From assembly GCA_027063105.1 (NCBI GenBank), contig JAMOSL010000028.1, positions 2,886-66,885 on the forward strand: DNA of 64,000 bases. Direction: 5' to 3'. Both the position numbers and the translations under genes were made by a program. Positions within the stretch are counted from its first letter, which is position 1. Each line of letters opens with the position of its first letter. This document shows positions 55,269-62,910 of the stretch, piece by piece. The DNA comes from Campylobacteraceae bacterium. GTDB taxonomy: Bacteria > Campylobacterota > Campylobacteria > Campylobacterales > Sulfurovaceae. The notes beneath the pieces are model-generated. The model saw only the letters and a list, made by a program, of their open reading frames with translations, ran no database searches and was not told the DNA's origin.

Positions 55269-58121
55269 ATGTCAGTAAGTAGACGAGACTTTTTGAAAAG
55301 TTCAGCAGCAGTAGCAGCTGCAGGTGCAGTGGGGATTTCAGTTCCACAAGAGGCACAAGCAGAAGCAGCTAAGGCAGAATCAAATTGGAGATGGGACAAA
55401 GCAGCATGTCGTTTCTGTGGTACTGGTTGTGGTATTATGTTAGCAACAAAAGGTGGTAAAATTGTTGCAGTTAAAGGTGATCCAGCAGCACCAGTAAATA
55501 GAGGTTTAAATTGTATTAAAGGTTACTTTAATGCTAAAATCATGTATGGAGCAGATAGACTTAAAACTCCACTTCTTAGAATGAATGATAAAGGTGAATT
55601 TGACAAAAAAGGTAAATTCAAACCAGTATCTTGGAAAAGAGCATTTGATGAGATGGAATTTCATGCTAAAAAAGCACTTAAAGCTAGTGGTCCAGAGGGT
55701 GTAGCTGTATTTGCTTCAGGTCAATACACCGTTATGGAAGGATATGCTGCGCAAAAGATGATGAAGGGTGGTTTCCGTTCAAATGCTATTGATCCTAATG
55801 CAAGACATTGTATGGCATCTGCTGTTGTTGGTTTTTATCAAACATTTGGTATAGATGAGCCATCTGGTTGTTATGATGATATTGAAATTACAGATACTAT
55901 TGTAACTTGGGGTTCTAATATGGCAGAGATGCACCCAATTCTTTGGTCTCGTGTATCTGATAGAAAATTATCTAATCCTGATAAAGTTAAAATTGTAAAT
56001 ATTCAAACTTATACTCATAGAACTTGTGATATTGGTGATATTAATATCATATTCTCTCCAAATACTGACCTTGCTTTATGGAATTATATTGCAAGAGAGA
56101 TTGTATACAGAGATAAAAAAGGTGGAGGTAAAGAGGATATTATTGATTGGGATTTCATCAATGAAAATATTGTATTTACAGCAGGTCCTACTAATATTGG
56201 TTATGGTCTGAGAAGAGCAGGTGAAAAATCAATTACTCCTGTTAATCCTGATGGAAGTGCTGGAAAGTATACAGCTCTTGAGATGGAAATTATAAATAAA
56301 GAGATGGAGAAAAAAGTTTCTGCGAAGGAAGCACCTGCACTTGAACCATTTGGTTATAAAGAGGGTGATACAATGAAGCATACTGCTGGTACTCTTAAGC
56401 ACTGGCATATCTCTTTTGAAGATTATAAAAAATCTTTAGAACCATATACACTTGAATATACAGCTGAAATTTCTAAAGGTGATCCTAATGAATCAATGGA
56501 AAGCTTTAAAGAAAAACTTCAAGCACTAGCTGAACTTTATATTGAGAAAAATAGAAAAGTAGTTTCATTTTGGACAATGGGTATGAATCAACATACTAGA
56601 GGTACTTGGGTAAATACACTTAGCTATAATGTTCACTTTATGCTTAATAAACAAGCTCTTCCAGGAAATGGTGCATTCTCATTAACAGGTCAACCTTCAG
56701 CTTGTGGTACAGCTAGAGAAGTTGGAACATTCTGCCATAGATTACCTGCTGATATGATGGTTAAAAATCCTAAGCATAGAGCGATAACTGAAAAAACTTG
56801 GGGAATTCCAGCAGGAACACTTAATCCAGTTGGTAACCAACATATCATGAAAATTCATAGAGATATAGAAGATGGTATTGTTAAGTTTGCTTGGGTGAAT
56901 GTATGTAATGCATATCAAGATAGTGCATCTGCTTCTCATTGGATTAAAGCAGCAAGAGAAATGGATAACTTTATTGTAACTTCAGATGGTTATCCAGGTA
57001 TTTCGGCAAAAGTTTCTGACCTTGTTCTTCCATCAGCAATGATTTATGAAAAATGGGGTGCTTATGGAAATGCTGAAAGAAGAACACAACATTGGAGACA
57101 ACAAGTATTACCAGTAGGTGATGCAATGTCTGATACATGGCAGTGGATGGAATTTGCTAAAAGATTCACAGTTAAAGACCTTTGGGGTGGATATACTCTT
57201 AGAAATGGTAAAAAACTTGCAGATGTTAGAGCAGATGCTAAGAAATTTGATTATACAGATGATACAACTATGTATGATATTCTTTTTGCAAATAAAGGTA
57301 AAGAGTATAAACTTGATATGACTAAATTTCCTCAAGAAGGTTATGACAATTCTGAATGTATCGGAGATAGTCGTAATGTTAAAGGTGGAGATGGCGAAGT
57401 CTTTAAAGGTTATGGGTATATGGTTCATGAATATTTATTTGAAGAGTATGCGTCATTTGGTAGAGGACATGGACATGACCTTGCACCATTTGAAGTTTAT
57501 CATAAAGTTAGAGGACTTAAATGGCCTGTTATTGATGGTAAAGAGACACAGTGGAGATTTAATGTTAAATATGACCCTTATGCAGCAAAAGCAGTTAAAG
57601 ATAGTGGAAATAACTCTACTCATGCATTTTATGGTCCATTAGCTAAAAACTTATTACAAGGTAACCTTAGTGGTCCAGATAAGTCTAAAGGAAAAAAATC
57701 TCTTAAAAATAAAGCTAAGATATTTGCTAGACCATACATGGATCCACCAGAAATGCCAGATGAAAAATATGATACTTGGTTATGTACAGGTAGAGTTCTA
57801 GAGCATTGGCATTCAGGTACTATGACAATGAGAGTTCCAGAACTTTTCCGTGCTGTTCCAGAAGCATTATGTTATATGCACCCTAAAGATGCTAAAGCAA
57901 AAGGTCTTAAAAGAGGTGAACTTGCATGGGTAGAGTCAAGAAGAGGTAAAGTTAAAGCTAGAGTTGAGACAAGAGGAAGAAATAGACCACCACAAGGATT
58001 GGTATTTGTGCCTTGGTTTGATGAGAAGGTATTTATTAATAAAGTTTGTCTTGATGCAACTTGTCCTATGTCTAAACAGACTGATTATAAAAAGTGTGCA
58101 GTAAGCATTAAAAAAGTATAA
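55269..58121 (+). CDS. napA: Periplasmic nitrate reductase catalytic subunit
   Basis: 950 aa with a Tat signal ([17 protein letters not shown]), the N-terminal 4Fe-4S motif CRFCGTGCG and the molybdopterin domains. Confidence 0.97.
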
Positions 58122-58123
58122 AT

Positions 58124-58948
58124 ATGGCTGACTCTAACAACAATAGACGAAAGTTTATGGCAACGACTCTTCAAAGCGTAGGTCTTACGGCTCTTGGTGG
58201 ATTGTTGTGGAGTGGCTATAGTGATGAGGTTAAAGCATCGCCATTAGTTCTTAGACCACCAGCAGCAATTGAAGAAGAAGATTTTTTAAAAGCTTGTATA
58301 AAGTGTGGTTTATGTGCTGAAGCTTGTGTTAATCGTGATAGTAATAAGAATACTGATGGAAGTCAACGAGATGGAACGCTAATAATGGCAAAAGGTGGTG
58401 ACCATAAGATGATAGGAACACCATTTTTTATACCTACAGAGATACCATGTTATATGTGTGATGATATTCCTTGTGTACCTGTATGTCCATCTGGTGCTTT
58501 AGATATGAAAAGTGTTCTTAATAAAGAGAATGAACTTGATATTAATTTAGCAAGAATGGGGTTAGCAGTTGTACATAAAGAATCTTGTGTAGCATTTTGG
58601 GGAATTCAGTGTGATGCTTGTTATAGAGCTTGTCCTATTCAAGGAGAGGCTATCACTATTGAACATCAAAAAAATGATAGAACAGGTAAACATGCTTTTC
58701 TATTACCAATTGTTCATTCTGATATTTGTACTGGTTGTGGCTTATGTGAAAAGGCTTGTATTACAGAAGAACCAGCTATATTCGTATTGCCTGTAGAAGA
58801 GGCAACAGGAAGAGCAGGTAATCATTATGTTAAAGGTTGGGATATGAAAGACCAGCTTAGAGTTAAAGACGCAAAAGAGATACATACTGTAGATGAACGA
58901 AGTGACAAAAAAGCTAGTGATTATCTGAATATGGAGGTAGAATATTAA
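58124..58948 (+). CDS. napG: Periplasmic poly-ferredoxin NapG
   Basis: 274 aa with a Tat-like NNRRKFMATT and four Cys clusters (CIKCGLCAEAC; CYMCDDIPCVPVCP; CDACYRACP; CTGCGLCEKAC). Confidence 0.9.
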   Translation: MADSNNNRRKFMATTLQSVGLTALGGLLWSGYSDEVKASPLVLRPPAAIEEEDFLKACIKCGLCAEACVNRDSNKNTDGSQRDGTLIMAKGGDHKMIGTPFFIPTEIPCYMCDDIPCVPVCPSGALDMKSVLNKENELDINLARMGLAVVHKESCVAFWGIQCDACYRACPIQGEAITIEHQKNDRTGKHAFLLPIVHSDICTGCGLCEKACITEEPAIFVLPVEEATGRAGNHYVKGWDMKDQLRVKDAKEIHTVDERSDKKASDYLNMEVEY

Positions 58949-59751
58949 TGAAAAATATTAAATATTTACTTCTAAGAAGAGTATCACAGTTTACAATTTT
59001 GTTTCTTTATTTTGGTGCTAATGCTTATGGTTGGCATATGTTAGAGGGAACATTCGGGGCTTCAAGATTATTTGGTTTTATACCATTATCTGATCCATAT
59101 ATGGTTATACAAGTATTAGCAAGTGGATTTGTATTAGGTGTTGATGTTCTTTTGGGTGCATTGATAATCATTCTATTCTATATGATAGTGGGAGGACGAG
59201 CTTTTTGTAGTTGGGTATGTCCTATTAATATGGTTACAGATTTAGCTAATTGGTTGAGACGGAAATTGAATCTTGATAAAGAAGAGATTAACTATCGTTT
59301 TATAAAAAGACGAGCTAGATACTGGATTATGGTATTAGGTATTATCGTATCAGCTGTTGTTGGAGTTGCTGCTTTTGAAGTTTTAAGTCCTATCACAATT
59401 ATGCAAAGAGGTATTATCTTTGGTTTTGGTGCAGGGATAGCTGTGGTAATTGCCATATTCCTTTTTGATTTGTTTGGAATTAAAAATGGTTGGTGTGGAC
59501 ATTTATGTCCTTTAGGTGCTACATATTCTATTATTGGAAAGACTAGTTTAATAAGAGTTGACCATAATCATGAGAATTGTACAAATTGTATGGATTGTAA
59601 AGTTGTTTGCCCAGAAAATCAAGTGTTATATATGATAAATAAGGAGAGTATCATGGTTACAGATGGAGAGTGTACCAATTGTGGTCGCTGTATAGATGTT
59701 TGTAATGACGATGCTCTAGAATTTAATATTAGAAATTTTATAAAAAAATAG
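58948..59751 (+). CDS. napH: Membrane quinol-dehydrogenase subunit NapH
   Basis: 267 aa with four TM helices, two CxxxCP motifs (CSWVCPIN, CGHLCPLG) and two C-terminal 4Fe-4S motifs. Confidence 0.9.
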   Translation: MKNIKYLLLRRVSQFTILFLYFGANAYGWHMLEGTFGASRLFGFIPLSDPYMVIQVLASGFVLGVDVLLGALIIILFYMIVGGRAFCSWVCPINMVTDLANWLRRKLNLDKEEINYRFIKRRARYWIMVLGIIVSAVVGVAAFEVLSPITIMQRGIIFGFGAGIAVVIAIFLFDLFGIKNGWCGHLCPLGATYSIIGKTSLIRVDHNHENCTNCMDCKVVCPENQVLYMINKESIMVTDGECTNCGRCIDVCNDDALEFNIRNFIKK

Positions 59752-59766
59752 TATAAAGGAGAGATA

Positions 59767-60723
59767 ATGACAAAAGTTTTAAAAGTTATTGCATTAGGTT
59801 CATTAATTGCTACATCTGCATTATATTCAGCAGGAACAGCAGGTTGTCTTGGTTGTCACGGAGCTTCATTTGAGAAAAAAGCAATGGGTAAATCTAAAGT
59901 CGTAAAAGATATGAGTAAAGAGGATATTATCAAATCACTTAATGGCTATAAAGATGGTTCTTATGGTGGAGCTATGAAAGCTATGATGATAGGACAAGTT
60001 AAGTCTTTGGATGCTGCTGCAATTAATGCTTTGGCAGATGCTATTAAAGGTGATTCGGTTGCTCCAGTAGTTGAATCAGCTCCAGTAACAGAGAAAAAGC
60101 TTATAGATATTAATTCTAAAATGAGAGATGCTAAGAGATTAGAGAAAGAAGATTTAGGAAATAAAAAAGAAGTTTCTGAATTAACTTTAGGTCTTAGACA
60201 AACTGATTTATATAGTGAGAAAGATGAAACAACAGGTGTAAAAACTGATTATAGCAGACCAGCACCAGGAAGTTCAACTAAATTTGAAAGAGCTTATGTT
60301 AATGCTCCTCCTATGATACCTCACTCTGTTGATGGACTATTACCTATTATGCAAAATAATAACCAATGTTTAGGCTGTCATATGCCTGAAGTTGCAAAAA
60401 GCATGGGTGCTACACCACTTCCAGTATCTCATTTTACAAATTACAGACCAGAAACTGTACTTAATAAAGATGGTGAATTGCTAAAAGAGGGTAAAATTGT
60501 TGGTATCAATAAAGGTGATATGGGTAATGTAAGTGATATAGTTATTGCTAAAGCTAAGAAATCAGATAAACTTTATCAAGGTAGATTTAACTGTTCTCAA
60601 TGTCATGCACCACAATCTAAAACTGATACAGTTGTAGGAAATACATTTGAATCAGATGGTCTTACAGATAAATTAAAGGGTCATTCAAGCCTAGCAGATG
60701 CTATGAATGAGGGTGTTGAGTAG
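59767..60723 (+). CDS. napB: NapB di-haem subunit with an N-terminal cytochrome c553-like mono-haem domain (three CxxCH)
   Basis: 318 aa. CLGCHG...GYKDGSYGGAMKAMM closely resembles Desulfovibrio c553. An approximately 70-aa linker follows. The NapB core is then ERAYVNAPPMIPH, CLGCHM and CSQCHA. Confidence 0.85.
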   Translation: MTKVLKVIALGSLIATSALYSAGTAGCLGCHGASFEKKAMGKSKVVKDMSKEDIIKSLNGYKDGSYGGAMKAMMIGQVKSLDAAAINALADAIKGDSVAPVVESAPVTEKKLIDINSKMRDAKRLEKEDLGNKKEVSELTLGLRQTDLYSEKDETTGVKTDYSRPAPGSSTKFERAYVNAPPMIPHSVDGLLPIMQNNNQCLGCHMPEVAKSMGATPLPVSHFTNYRPETVLNKDGELLKEGKIVGINKGDMGNVSDIVIAKAKKSDKLYQGRFNCSQCHAPQSKTDTVVGNTFESDGLTDKLKGHSSLADAMNEGVE

Positions 60724-61250
60724 TGGCAAGTAGAAGAGATTTATTTAACTCTTTTACAAAACCTTTACGACAAAATCAAGAGGAGGATATTCCCCTCTTG
60801 ATTAGACCACCTTATGGAAAAGATGAATCTATTTTTCAGAGTGAGTGTCCAAGTTGTGAAAGTAAAGCTTGTGTTGCTTCTTGTGATGAGAAGATTATCT
60901 TTATTAGTGATGATGGTACACCAACATTAGATTTTTCTAAAAATGGTTGTACTTTTTGTGATGAGTGTGCTAATGTTTGTGAGAAAGATATTTTATCTTT
61001 GAAAAATATAGATACTTCTGAAAAATTAAATGCAATGTTTAAAATATCATTAGAGGGTTGTGTAGCTCATCACGGAGTTATCTGTTATTCTTGTAAGGAA
61101 CCTTGTATTGATGATGCAATTTTATTTAATGGAATGTTTAATCCTATAATAGATGAAGATAAATGTACAGGTTGTGGCTTCTGTATGCCACGATGTCCGG
61201 TTAAAGCAATAGATTATGTAGTTTTAGAATTAAAGGAGAATAAAGAATGA
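60723..61250 (+). CDS. napF: Cytoplasmic Fe-S maturation protein NapF
   Basis: 175 aa with a GTG start, SRRDLF, and several ferredoxin-type Cys motifs (CTFCDECANVC; CTGCGFCMPRCP). Confidence 0.85.
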   Translation: MASRRDLFNSFTKPLRQNQEEDIPLLIRPPYGKDESIFQSECPSCESKACVASCDEKIIFISDDGTPTLDFSKNGCTFCDECANVCEKDILSLKNIDTSEKLNAMFKISLEGCVAHHGVICYSCKEPCIDDAILFNGMFNPIIDEDKCTGCGFCMPRCPVKAIDYVVLELKENKE

Positions 61251-61585
61251 GTTTATCAATAAAGTATCCAAAGATATTTGAGAAGTTAGAAGACAAGGAT
61301 TTAGAGTTAAGGCATCTTTTAGGTATTGATGAAAATTATGAAGATTATGATTCAGAAGAATATGATTTTAATTTTGAAGATTATAATTTTGTTTTATATA
61401 TTGCTGAGCCAATTCAAAATATATTAGGCGAAGATAAAATGAATAAATTATTAGTAAAACTAAGTGAAAATAATTTATTTGAGAATTTTCGAGCAGATGA
61501 GATAGATTTGTATGGAGTTAAAACTGTTCTAAATGAAAATGAATTATCAACTTTATTATTAGATCAGATAGAAAATATTATATGA
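61247..61585 (+). CDS. Acidic 112-aa protein of unknown function inserted in the nap operon
   Basis: 4-nt overlaps with both napF and napL. About 30% of residues are Asp/Glu, there is no Cys and no signal peptide. Confidence 0.6.
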   Translation: MSLSIKYPKIFEKLEDKDLELRHLLGIDENYEDYDSEEYDFNFEDYNFVLYIAEPIQNILGEDKMNKLLVKLSENNLFENFRADEIDLYGVKTVLNENELSTLLLDQIENII

Positions 61586-62532
61586 GAAAGATATTTATTC
61601 CTCTAATATTAATATCAATAACTTGGGCAGTTCCTACAATAATACCAACCTCAATTATAGATATAAATGGAACTGTAAAAGATATGGTGTTAGATGGTGA
61701 TAATTTAATAGTAGCTACTGATATGGGGCATATAGAGGTTATTAATACTATAAATAATAAAAAGATTAGAGATATAAATATTCCTGATATTAAAGATTTT
61801 GTGGGTGATGTAACACCTGCTAGAGTTATGAGTAGTGATGTCATTAATAATAAATATTTACTTCTTAGTGATAGTGGGAAAAGTGGATATACAAATTTAT
61901 TTATTTATGAGAATAATTTAACTCAAATATTATCACCAAAAAATAAGAATACAATTATTAAAGCAAGATTTATAGACAGCACACATATTCTTTTAGGTTA
62001 TTTAAGTAATGAAGTTTCACTTTTAGATTTAACAACTAAAGAAGAAAAATATAAAGTTCAACTAAGTGAATCCAAATTTTCTGATTTTGCTTTAAATGAA
62101 GATAAAAGTAAAGTAGTTTTTGCTTGTGAGAGTGGCATACTAAACTTAGTAGATGTTAAGAGTGGCAAGATATTAAAAGAGTTAAAAGGTCAAAATGTAG
62201 ACAATGTTTATAGAGTTGATTTTAAAAACAACATTATATCAGGTGCAGGTCAAGATAGAAGAGGTTCGATATATAGTGCTTCTAGTGGAAGAGGAAGTTA
62301 TATTACAGGAGACTTCTTAATATATTCAACAGCCTTAAGTCCAAATAGTTCTAAAGTGGCATTTTCAATGGACGAAAAGAATAATATATCAATCTATAAT
62401 AGACTTAGCAAATCAAAAATAGCAATATTAAAAGGTCAGAGAAGTACTCTAAATGCTATAATATTTAAAGATGAAACAAGAATATTTTCATCTAGCGATG
62501 ATAGTAGTATAATGGTATGGGATTTAAAATAA
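61582..62532 (+). CDS. napL: Periplasmic beta-propeller protein NapL
   Basis: 316 aa with a signal peptide (MRKIFIPLILISITWA) and a WD40-like repeat pattern (the last repeat ends SSDDSSIMVWDL). It occupies the expected position between napF and napD. Confidence 0.75.
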   Translation: MRKIFIPLILISITWAVPTIIPTSIIDINGTVKDMVLDGDNLIVATDMGHIEVINTINNKKIRDINIPDIKDFVGDVTPARVMSSDVINNKYLLLSDSGKSGYTNLFIYENNLTQILSPKNKNTIIKARFIDSTHILLGYLSNEVSLLDLTTKEEKYKVQLSESKFSDFALNEDKSKVVFACESGILNLVDVKSGKILKELKGQNVDNVYRVDFKNNIISGAGQDRRGSIYSASSGRGSYITGDFLIYSTALSPNSSKVAFSMDEKNNISIYNRLSKSKIAILKGQRSTLNAIIFKDETRIFSSSDDSSIMVWDLK

Positions 62533-62544
62533 TAAAGGGAAAAA

Positions 62545-62910
62545 ATGAATATTTCAAGTATAGTAGTACAAGCACCATCAGATAATATAGATGCATTAGT
62601 AGAACTTTTTACAGAAGCAGATTATTGTGATTACCATTTCCACGATAAAGAAAGAGGAAAGATTATTCTTACAATAGAAGGTAAAGATGTTGGGGAAGAG
62701 ATTAAGAAATTAGTTAAAATCCAAGAATTACCCCAAGTTATGGCAGCAGATATGATGCAAACCTACCAAGAAGACCAACTGGATGAAGAGATAAAACTAA
62801 TGAACGAACAAGATTTCGTACCAGAAGTTCTGCAAAGAGAAGATATAGACATAAGAGATATTGTTTATAATGGAGATTTAAAAAAGAAAGATTTTTTAGG
62901 TGGAATTTAA
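62545..62910 (+). CDS. napD: NapA chaperone NapD
   Basis: 121 aa. MNISSIVVQ...ILTIEG....EIKKLVKIQELPQV fits the NapD fold pattern. It has an acidic C-terminal tail. Confidence 0.8.
   Translation: MNISSIVVQAPSDNIDALVELFTEADYCDYHFHDKERGKIILTIEGKDVGEEIKKLVKIQELPQVMAADMMQTYQEDQLDEEIKLMNEQDFVPEVLQREDIDIRDIVYNGDLKKKDFLGGI

Follow-up and report, generated by a model that had tools for sequence, protein, structure and literature searches.

At hydrothermal vents, in sulfidic sediments, and in animal symbioses, Sulfurovum and related bacteria rank among the principal primary producers and consumers of nitrate, and the periplasmic nitrate reductase, Nap, is their nitrate reductase. The canonical NapB subunit of this enzyme (e.g., in Haemophilus influenzae, 1JNI; Rhodobacter sphaeroides, 1OGY_B; Cupriavidus necator, 3ML1_B) carries two haems, whose CxxCH attachment motifs are spaced by about 40 residues. 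Enzymes in which a soluble carrier has become tethered as a fused cytochrome c are campylobacterial cNosZ, which belongs to the NosGH/NosC1/NosC2 module, and subunit II of caa3 oxidase; the nos module also combines a G/H-type iron-sulfur (FeS) module with monohaem cytochromes in one cluster. In Campylobacter jejuni, nitrate respiration via Nap requires the menaquinol:cytochrome c reductase Qcr, and the same has been reported for Wolinella succinogenes (PMC6195509). The authors call the route from QcrC to NapB uncertain and the role of NapGH unclear, and Nap respiration in C. jejuni can do without the soluble cytochromes CccB and CccC (PMC6195509). According to a model of sulfur-oxidizing Campylobacterota, the canonical Sox system reduces cytochrome c and is unable to feed a quinol-dependent Nap (bioRxiv 10.1101/717884). 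Here we analyze a NapB that is joined to a cytochrome c553-type domain with a third haem motif. Its gene lies on a stretch of 64,000 nucleotides (nt), hereafter called the window (NCBI GenBank assembly GCA_027063105.1, contig JAMOSL010000028.1, positions 2,886 to 66,885 of the forward strand), from a Campylobacteraceae bacterium assigned to the Sulfurovaceae. The window nap locus shares with C. jejuni and W. succinogenes the phylum, the napAGHBFLD operon type, the di-haem QcrC, and the need to pass electrons from a c-type cytochrome to NapB (PMC6195509). However, these two organisms have a di-haem NapB and need napGH, whereas the window NapB contains a c-type domain and napGH has been lost in two of its relatives.

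Architecture of the NapB-cytochrome c553 fusion

The napB gene (59767..60723, plus strand like all features of the window described below) occupies the fourth position in a nap cluster with the order napA-G-H-B-F-(orf112)-L-D. An AAGGAG ribosome-binding site is found 7 nt upstream of this open reading frame (ORF), which is continuous and codes for 318 amino acids (aa) plus the stop. The three CxxCH motifs counted in the earlier note are located at C27-H31, C201-H205, and C276-H280, and the assignment as a tri-haem fusion is based on the ORF, Pfam, and matches to sequences of the Protein Data Bank (PDB). Residues 1-22 (MTKVLKVIALGSLIATSALYSA; 59767..59832) represent a signal peptide with a putative cleavage site, and this N-terminus is nearly identical to those encoded by free c553 genes in two other nap loci, L061 and L089 (L numbers denote fetched nap loci, G numbers genomes, with G000 for the window genome, and P numbers proteins).

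The signal peptide is followed by a cytochrome c553-type monohaem domain (residues 23-95; 59833..60051), identified by phmmer comparison with 1DVH, AlphaFold2 (AF2) modeling, and Foldseek. On residues 24-90, two Pfam profiles of class I cytochromes c exceed their cut-offs (PF13442 with 37.4 against 27, PF00034 with 30.8 against 21.3), and a comparison with all PDB sequences ranks the D. vulgaris (Desulfovibrio vulgaris) cytochrome c553 entries 1DVH, 1C53, 2DVH, and 1E08 first. The similarity to Desulfovibrio c553 perceived in the earlier note is significant: residues 25-92 align with the D. vulgaris protein in phmmer over 68 residues without a gap (E = 2e-14, ~46% identity). Both sequences share the pattern CxxCH...GYxDGSYGG...AMM, the position of the methionine ligand, and the fold. 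In the window protein, the haem 1 attachment motif CLGCH (C27, C30, H31; 59845..59859) is followed about 43 residues on by Met74 (59986..59988), which is the counterpart in the alignment of the axial methionine Met57 of D. vulgaris c553 and the predicted sixth (axial) ligand of haem 1. The N-terminal domain is therefore predicted to bind haem 1 with His/Met ligation. D. vulgaris c553 is a free, soluble carrier of 79 aa that serves formate dehydrogenase, hydrogenase, and an oxidase. In contrast to such a soluble carrier of ~80 residues, the c553 of the window is a tethered part of a 318-aa nitrate reductase subunit, and it occurs in a different phylum.

In a single-chain AF2 model of the window NapB, built on an alignment of 83 rows, the predicted local distance difference test (pLDDT) score is 77-91 in the c553 part, below 50 for residues 97-120, and 55-76 in the NapB part. 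Foldseek placed the N-terminal domain on 1DVH and 1C53 with a template modeling (TM) score of 0.81 and a root-mean-square deviation of 1.3-1.9 Å, and was convincing for the c553 part of the whole-chain model only. A flexible linker (residues 96-110, DSVAPVVESAPVTEK; 60052..60096) comes next, marked by low pLDDT, low identity, and variable length. The earlier note had described a Ser/Pro/Lys/Glu-rich linker behind the c553 domain. A variable stretch does exist, but it spans only ~15 aa, and residues 111-175 (60097..60291) constitute a conserved N-terminal arm of NapB (LIDIN...KEDLGNKK...LGLRQTDLY...RPAPG; 61% pairwise identity) that is also present in many unfused NapBs of the Sulfurovaceae.

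The remainder of the protein is the di-haem NapB core (residues 176-318; 60292..60720), with the haem 2 motif CLGCH (C201-H205; 60367..60381) and the haem 3 motif CSQCH (C276-H280; 60592..60606). PF03892 (NapB) scores 112.1 bits against a gathering score of 25.1, so that the NapB and the class I cytochrome c profiles, the combination for which the earlier note had suggested a Pfam search, are both found above their cut-offs. The NapB structures 1JNI, 3ML1, and 1OGY match residues 166-226 and rank after the c553 entries among the PDB sequences. H186 and H222, the histidines of the PPMIPH and SHF motifs, are taken as distal haem ligands, a role borrowed from the solved NapB structures. The equivalog NF008609 (PRK11586) reaches 66.4 bits, far from its cut-off of 230. 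Judged from these profiles, the window protein is a NapB outside the narrow enterobacterial equivalog. With the canonical di-haem proteins it has in common the NapB profile, two CxxCH motifs, the PPMIPH and SHF histidines, and the adjacency to napA. Unlike them, it possesses the additional N-terminal monohaem His/Met domain with its linker, the long N-terminal arm, and an insertion of ~35 aa between the NapB haems, which places the two CxxCH motifs of the core 75 residues apart. The product had been described as twice the usual size of NapB. This holds in comparison with the proteobacterial forms of ~150 aa (the NCBIfam NapB profile has 149 positions), but not within the lineage of the window. 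There, di-haem NapBs already measure 185-271 aa and the fusion thus adds only ~95 aa.

A word-indexed search with the window NapB retrieved 1,979 homologs, the best 120 of which are all 310-343 aa long and show the same two-domain Pfam content. From this search and the fetched loci, a set of 184 distinct fused sequences was assembled. C27, C30, H31, M74, both CxxCH motifs of the NapB core, H186, and H222 are invariant in all 184. The mean pairwise identity amounts to 73% in the c553 domain, 74% in the NapB core, 61% in the N-terminal arm, and 33% in the linker, whose length varies from 9 to 38 residues. This conservation pattern is, as far as sequences can tell, that of a flexibly tethered, functional haem domain, kept under purifying selection equal to that on the NapB core. 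Clustering at 50% reduces the whole fused family to one representative, which identifies it as one compact clade of sequences.

A missed stop or a frameshift that merely joins two genes, or a decaying domain that no longer binds haem, would offer a trivial explanation of such a protein, and damaged or shortened forms do exist. The fusion appears frameshifted in L088/G206 and is interrupted by three stops in G235, a second napB paralog in family f19 retains a mere relic of the last c553 helix, and one database entry from Sulfurovum indicum begins at an internal start (233 aa). However, the 184 distinct, continuous sequences stem from independent assemblies and include closed isolate genomes, a frameshift or misassembly is rejected on this basis, and the haem ligands are conserved without exception in a domain that is as conserved as the core. 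We therefore regard an artifact or relic as extremely improbable. The central statements of the earlier note, a tri-haem NapB created by in-frame fusion with a c553-like domain and a continuous frame with one signal peptide and no missed stop, are upheld by sequence, profile, fold, and the recurrence of the same architecture in all 184 fused homologs.

Distribution, origin, and loss of the c553 domain

The nearest named relatives belong to Sulfurovum and Nitratifractor bins and to animal-associated Campylobacterota, and the tri-haem form is common among sulfur oxidizers of the deep sea. How widespread the fusion is across the Campylobacterota, a question raised by the earlier note, was assessed first of all in 250 species genomes of the Sulfurovaceae (NapB threshold 1e-30; fused and unfused forms tallied by hand). 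NapB was found in 159 of these genomes and the full-length fusion in ~89 of the 159; two to three NapB fragments at contig ends were left outside both classes. In the genera g4 and g8 the fusion predominates; it is scattered in g1 (window genome, G004), g2, g6, g9, and g10. Outside the family it is rare: a sample of 401 genomes of the order contained it in single genomes of families f6 and f8 and in two of the 32 genomes of f19, and the large families to which the well-studied genera belong yielded no example in this sample. The genus g3 (L134 = G047, L135 = G049) encodes a divergent, short NapB of 192 aa, which resembles the NapB of L089 in its short inter-haem spacer. It fell below the threshold and is thus outside the family count.

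Among cultured organisms, exact look-up identified the fusion in Sulfurovum sp. NBC37-1 (BAF71262.1 / WP_011979995.1, 322 aa) and in S. indicum / ST-21 (WP_197548350.1, 322 aa). Both proteins have the same tri-haem architecture as the window NapB, 66-69% identity to it, and the same place in the operon. The NapB of Nitratifractor salsuginis (ADV46853.1, 220 aa) represents the plain form. For S. indicum, two different start codons have been used to annotate napB. In the entry QOR63031.1 (233 aa), translation begins from an internal codon, so that this version lacks the entire c553 domain present in WP_197548350.1. Because the choice of the start codon can hide the domain, surveys of protein lengths in databases will undercount the fusion. 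The entries of the cultured NapBs bear generic product names only, under which the domain is invisible. Sequences of tri-haem NapBs have been public since 2007, but only as "periplasmic nitrate reductase, small subunit", and the extra domain has apparently not been studied; full-text literature searches found no paper on a tri-haem NapB or a c553 fusion, although a passing mention in subscription papers is possible.

The region between napH and napF exists in five states among the fetched loci. It contains either (a) a di-haem napB alone, (b) a free c553 gene of 94 aa followed by a di-haem napB, each with its own signal peptide (L089), (c) a fused napB, as in the window and most other loci, (d) a free c553 gene followed by a fused napB (L031, L034, L038, L043, L051, L061, and L071), or (e) one of the broken fusions mentioned above. 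The free c553 genes between napH and napB code for 94-95 aa and have their own signal peptide. A further free c553 gene, of 104 aa, is located ~1.4 kb beyond napD in G049. That c553 genes recur in nap operons, both on their own and within fusions, speaks for a functional partnership of c553 and NapB that does not depend on any one gene model. The signal peptide of the window fusion (MTKVLKVIALGSL...) is of the same c553 type as those of the free proteins in L061 (MTKVIKVIAVASL...) and L089 (MTKIVKVIGLVSL...). The event thus joined a c553 including its signal peptide to mature NapB, and the fusion probably originated when a c553 gene situated between napH and napB became linked in frame to the mature part of NapB. 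A tree of fused, operon-linked free, and other free c553 domains, which comprised 74 columns, gave no resolution on the source of the fused domain; it may have had a single origin, which this short alignment neither shows nor excludes.

Additional c553-type proteins were noted in these genomes. In G021, a lipoprotein-type c553 of 158 aa is encoded 200 nt upstream of a napB shortened at its 5' end (L008:5365-6438). The frame of this napB begins with ...NAPPMIPH after an AT-rich, stop-containing sequence and is truncated or rearranged, and the genome is otherwise complete. In G020 (L011), both free c553 genes lie among housekeeping genes, and no redox partner was found next to them. The window genome, a bin of 81% completeness, contains no free c553 paralog. 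Elsewhere, c553-type modules occur in tandem, with two, three, or four copies in one protein, or as the N-terminal domain of proteins of 279-342 aa with unrelated, uncharacterized C-terminal parts (both among P0132, P0133, P0137, P0222, P0224, and P0226).

A maximum-likelihood tree of the NapB core, calculated from 109 rows of which 68 are fused, has fused and unfused proteins interleaved. Parsimony requires 14 changes between the two forms, and strongly supported branches alone force at least 8. The window sequence falls in a well-supported clade with the fused NapBs of L013 and L014 and the unfused NapBs of L047 and L009. In the two unfused proteins, a signal peptide of the c553 type is directly followed by the arm, and from this arrangement the unfused NapBs of the window clade look like in-frame losses of the haem domain. 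In genus g49 of family f19, two napB genes are arranged in tandem (L119:2146-2916 in G571; also G367, G355, and G443; protein P0126). The second gene codes for 254-271 aa, and the segment behind its signal peptide (MDM.RVNALA.QIK.G) matches the last c553 helix without any CxxCH motif. By its sequence, this segment looks like the relic of a lost fusion. Useful but dispensable, the c553 module is acquired, duplicated, and lost over short times.

Proposed electron entry into NapB and the fate of NapGH

The most plausible function of the c553 domain, held with moderate confidence, is that of a tethered electron-entry port for donors at the level of cytochrome c, which usually works in parallel to NapGH and occasionally replaces it. 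The domain, on its linker of 9-38 residues, would hang from the NapB arm that holds NapA and would accept electrons in the periplasm. As candidate donors, QcrC, the di-haem subunit of the menaquinol:cytochrome c reductase, and/or cytochromes reduced by Sox or other periplasmic dehydrogenases come into question. From c553, electrons would pass through the two bis-His haems of NapB to the [4Fe-4S] cluster of NapA and on to its Mo site. Haem loading, this direction of electron flow, and the identity of the donor are what we infer from the comparison of genes and genomes. The window genome encodes QcrB, a QcrC-like di-haem protein, SoxA, and SoxX, in addition to subunits of a cbb3-type oxidase, NosC/NosH-like proteins, and three small c6/c551-like cytochromes. 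The latter include proteins of 109-110 aa that belong to a different subfamily than the c553 domain. This, together with the lack of a c553-type match in the complete ~1.7-Mb genome G036 from another family, led us to reject an identification of the domain with the CccA-type "c553" of C. jejuni.

The relation of the fusion to NapGH is central to this proposal. Wherever enough flanking sequence was available, napH is located directly upstream of the fused napB in 64 of 69 loci, so that a general replacement of NapGH by the c553 domain can be rejected. The retention of NapGH beside almost all fusions fits a port that exists in addition to the NapGH route. Of the five loci that deviate, three are explained by over-extended ORF calls, but the other two are real losses. 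In Sulfurovum sp. NORP62 (L073:3107-7861; G119, 94% complete), napA, a tri-haem napB, napF, and napD form the cluster; napG, napH, the small ORF, and napL are gone and 84 nt separate napA from napB. In G205 (80% complete), the cluster (L056:2953-8496) consists of napA, a napG remnant of 34 aa, a tri-haem napB, napF, the small ORF, a napL remnant of 85 aa, and napD. These are two separate deletions of napGH, each physically documented on one contig. NapG and NapH were not found anywhere in the G119 and G205 genomes, whereas the sister genomes (L053, L055) possess both proteins with 73-80% identity. The two napGH-less genomes keep a cytochrome b gene, and all haem ligands of their c553 domains are intact. 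As napA and the tri-haem napB are preserved too, both lineages fit a port that serves instead of NapGH, which would apparently have become dispensable there. A scan for NapH across the family revealed no other genome with NapB and without NapH beyond contig ends or a truncated napB, and, contig ends aside, no unfused napB locus without napGH was seen. The comparison comprises two cases of loss, and the relatives included in it are not independent.

The earlier note had already proposed that the c-type domain could offer periplasmic donors a direct port to NapAB, in addition to or instead of the NapGH route. Comparative evidence now speaks for such a putative port, with the donors named above as candidates. 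Several observations weigh against it. The NapB with the closest core to that of the window (84% identical; L047) has no c553 domain and the fusion has been lost repeatedly on the NapB-core tree, which makes the domain dispensable in many backgrounds. Both genomes that lack napGH come from metagenome bins of organisms whose Nap activity is putative. The whole-chain AF2 model has a predicted TM score (pTM) of 0.37 and no stable contact between the domains. It thus describes two bodies without fixed orientation, from which no haem-haem distance can be argued. Furthermore, the redox potential of D. vulgaris c553 is low for a class I cytochrome, and the actual potential of the window domain could favor other partners.

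The conserved neighborhood with napH also lends itself to a different interpretation, in which the domain acts as a relay inside the NapGH route. Electrons would then flow from the periplasmic NapG via c553 to NapB, similar to what has been proposed for NosC1 and NosC2 in the campylobacterial NosGH module. In its favor, the free c553 genes follow immediately upon napH, NapGH persists next to almost every fusion, and a NosC2-like ORF of the window genome (C103:763-1266) is distantly related to the domain (28% identity, pairwise E = 5e-4) and has the pattern K..(F/Y)K.G...MKG in common with it. The similarity of this 167-aa protein to the N-terminal domain of NapB is remote and the homology marginal. 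The genes of NosC1 and NosC2 are expected between those of the G and H proteins; the nap-linked c553 follows napH. Against a relay, the two lineages without napGH retain the c553 domain with every haem ligand, and most Campylobacterales, including the experimentally studied species, combine NapGH with a plain di-haem NapB. A relay from NapG is therefore unlikely in our view.

Alternatively, the domain might be an outlet or a buffer. NapB would be fed by NapGH or Qcr, and the swinging c553 would pass electrons to other periplasmic reductases, such as a cd1 or Cu nitrite reductase, cNosZ, or cytochrome c peroxidase, or store one more electron. The promiscuous use of c553-type modules in the phylum, as tandem repeats of two to four units and in fusions with unrelated C-terminal domains, would agree with such a role, as would the nos-type genes and a di-haem peroxidase-like ORF of the window genome. 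On the other hand, free c553 genes are embedded specifically in nap operons, no co-localization with nir or nos was seen in the loci examined, and an outlet leaves the tolerance of napGH loss unexplained. This makes an outlet or buffer the less probable still of these two alternatives, and an improbable one overall.

Returning to the tethered entry port, a more far-reaching form of it can be put forward tentatively, as a possibility to which we give considerably less weight than to the port as such. The tri-haem NapB may define a cytochrome c-dependent Nap with no need for NapGH, whose c553 docks on QcrC and could take electrons directly from Sox-reduced cytochromes; the napABFD cluster of the NORP62 type would be its minimal form. 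If docking on QcrC occurs, the Q cycle would render nitrate reduction electrogenic, and the gap between Qcr and NapB that the work on C. jejuni and W. succinogenes had left open would be closed. If the Sox route is used, it would explain how the oxidation of thiosulfate or sulfur at the level of cytochrome c drives nitrate reduction in vent Campylobacterota. In any case, the c553 socket on NapB is a concrete candidate for the connection of cytochrome c with Nap, and it bears on the question of how Sox oxidation, which reduces cytochrome c, can supply a Nap that supposedly depends on quinol (bioRxiv 10.1101/717884). The window fusion follows the same design as cNosZ and the caa3 oxidase, with a carrier attached to its enzyme, but differs from them in the type of enzyme, and in that its fusion partner is an electron-transfer subunit whereas theirs is catalytic. 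The fusion is dominant in Sulfurovum, and natural variants without napGH exist. With the carriers NBC37-1 and S. indicum in culture, these ideas are testable at the bench.

The nap gene cluster and other cytochrome genes of the window genome

The surroundings of the window napB are those of a genuine nap operon, and the same context is found in 64-68 of ~70 related loci. The cluster starts with napA (55269..58121), which codes for the catalytic Mo/[4Fe-4S] subunit of 950 aa; this ORF product is 74-84% identical to the NapA encoded beside fused or unfused napB in related loci. The ORFs of napG (58124..58948; poly-ferredoxin, 274 aa, with orthologs of 73-76% identity in sister genomes) and napH (58948..59751; membrane FeS protein, 267 aa, found in 161 of the 250 family genomes) separate it from napB. 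Downstream, napF (60723..61250; 175 aa) is the direct 3' neighbor of napB in 68 of 70 fused loci. The interval between napF and napL is occupied by an ORF for an acidic protein of 112 aa (61247..61585). Homologs detected by tblastn are encoded at the same place in ~70 fetched nap loci of the Sulfurovaceae and related organisms, and the ORF is thus not fortuitous but a conserved component of such operons. The cluster ends with the ORFs of napL (61582..62532; 316 aa) and napD (62545..62910; 121 aa).

Outside the nap cluster, the window genome contains a nos-type accessory block (G000, C103:158-2177) with two NosC1/NosC2-like monohaem cytochromes, a lipoprotein of 202 aa and the aforementioned 167-aa protein. 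A NapH-like membrane FeS protein of 301 aa is encoded after both cytochromes. Two putative multihaem proteins are encoded elsewhere, by an ORF for 792 aa with 12 CxxCH motifs (C64:9968-12346) and an ORF for 363 aa with five such motifs (C192:8203-9294).

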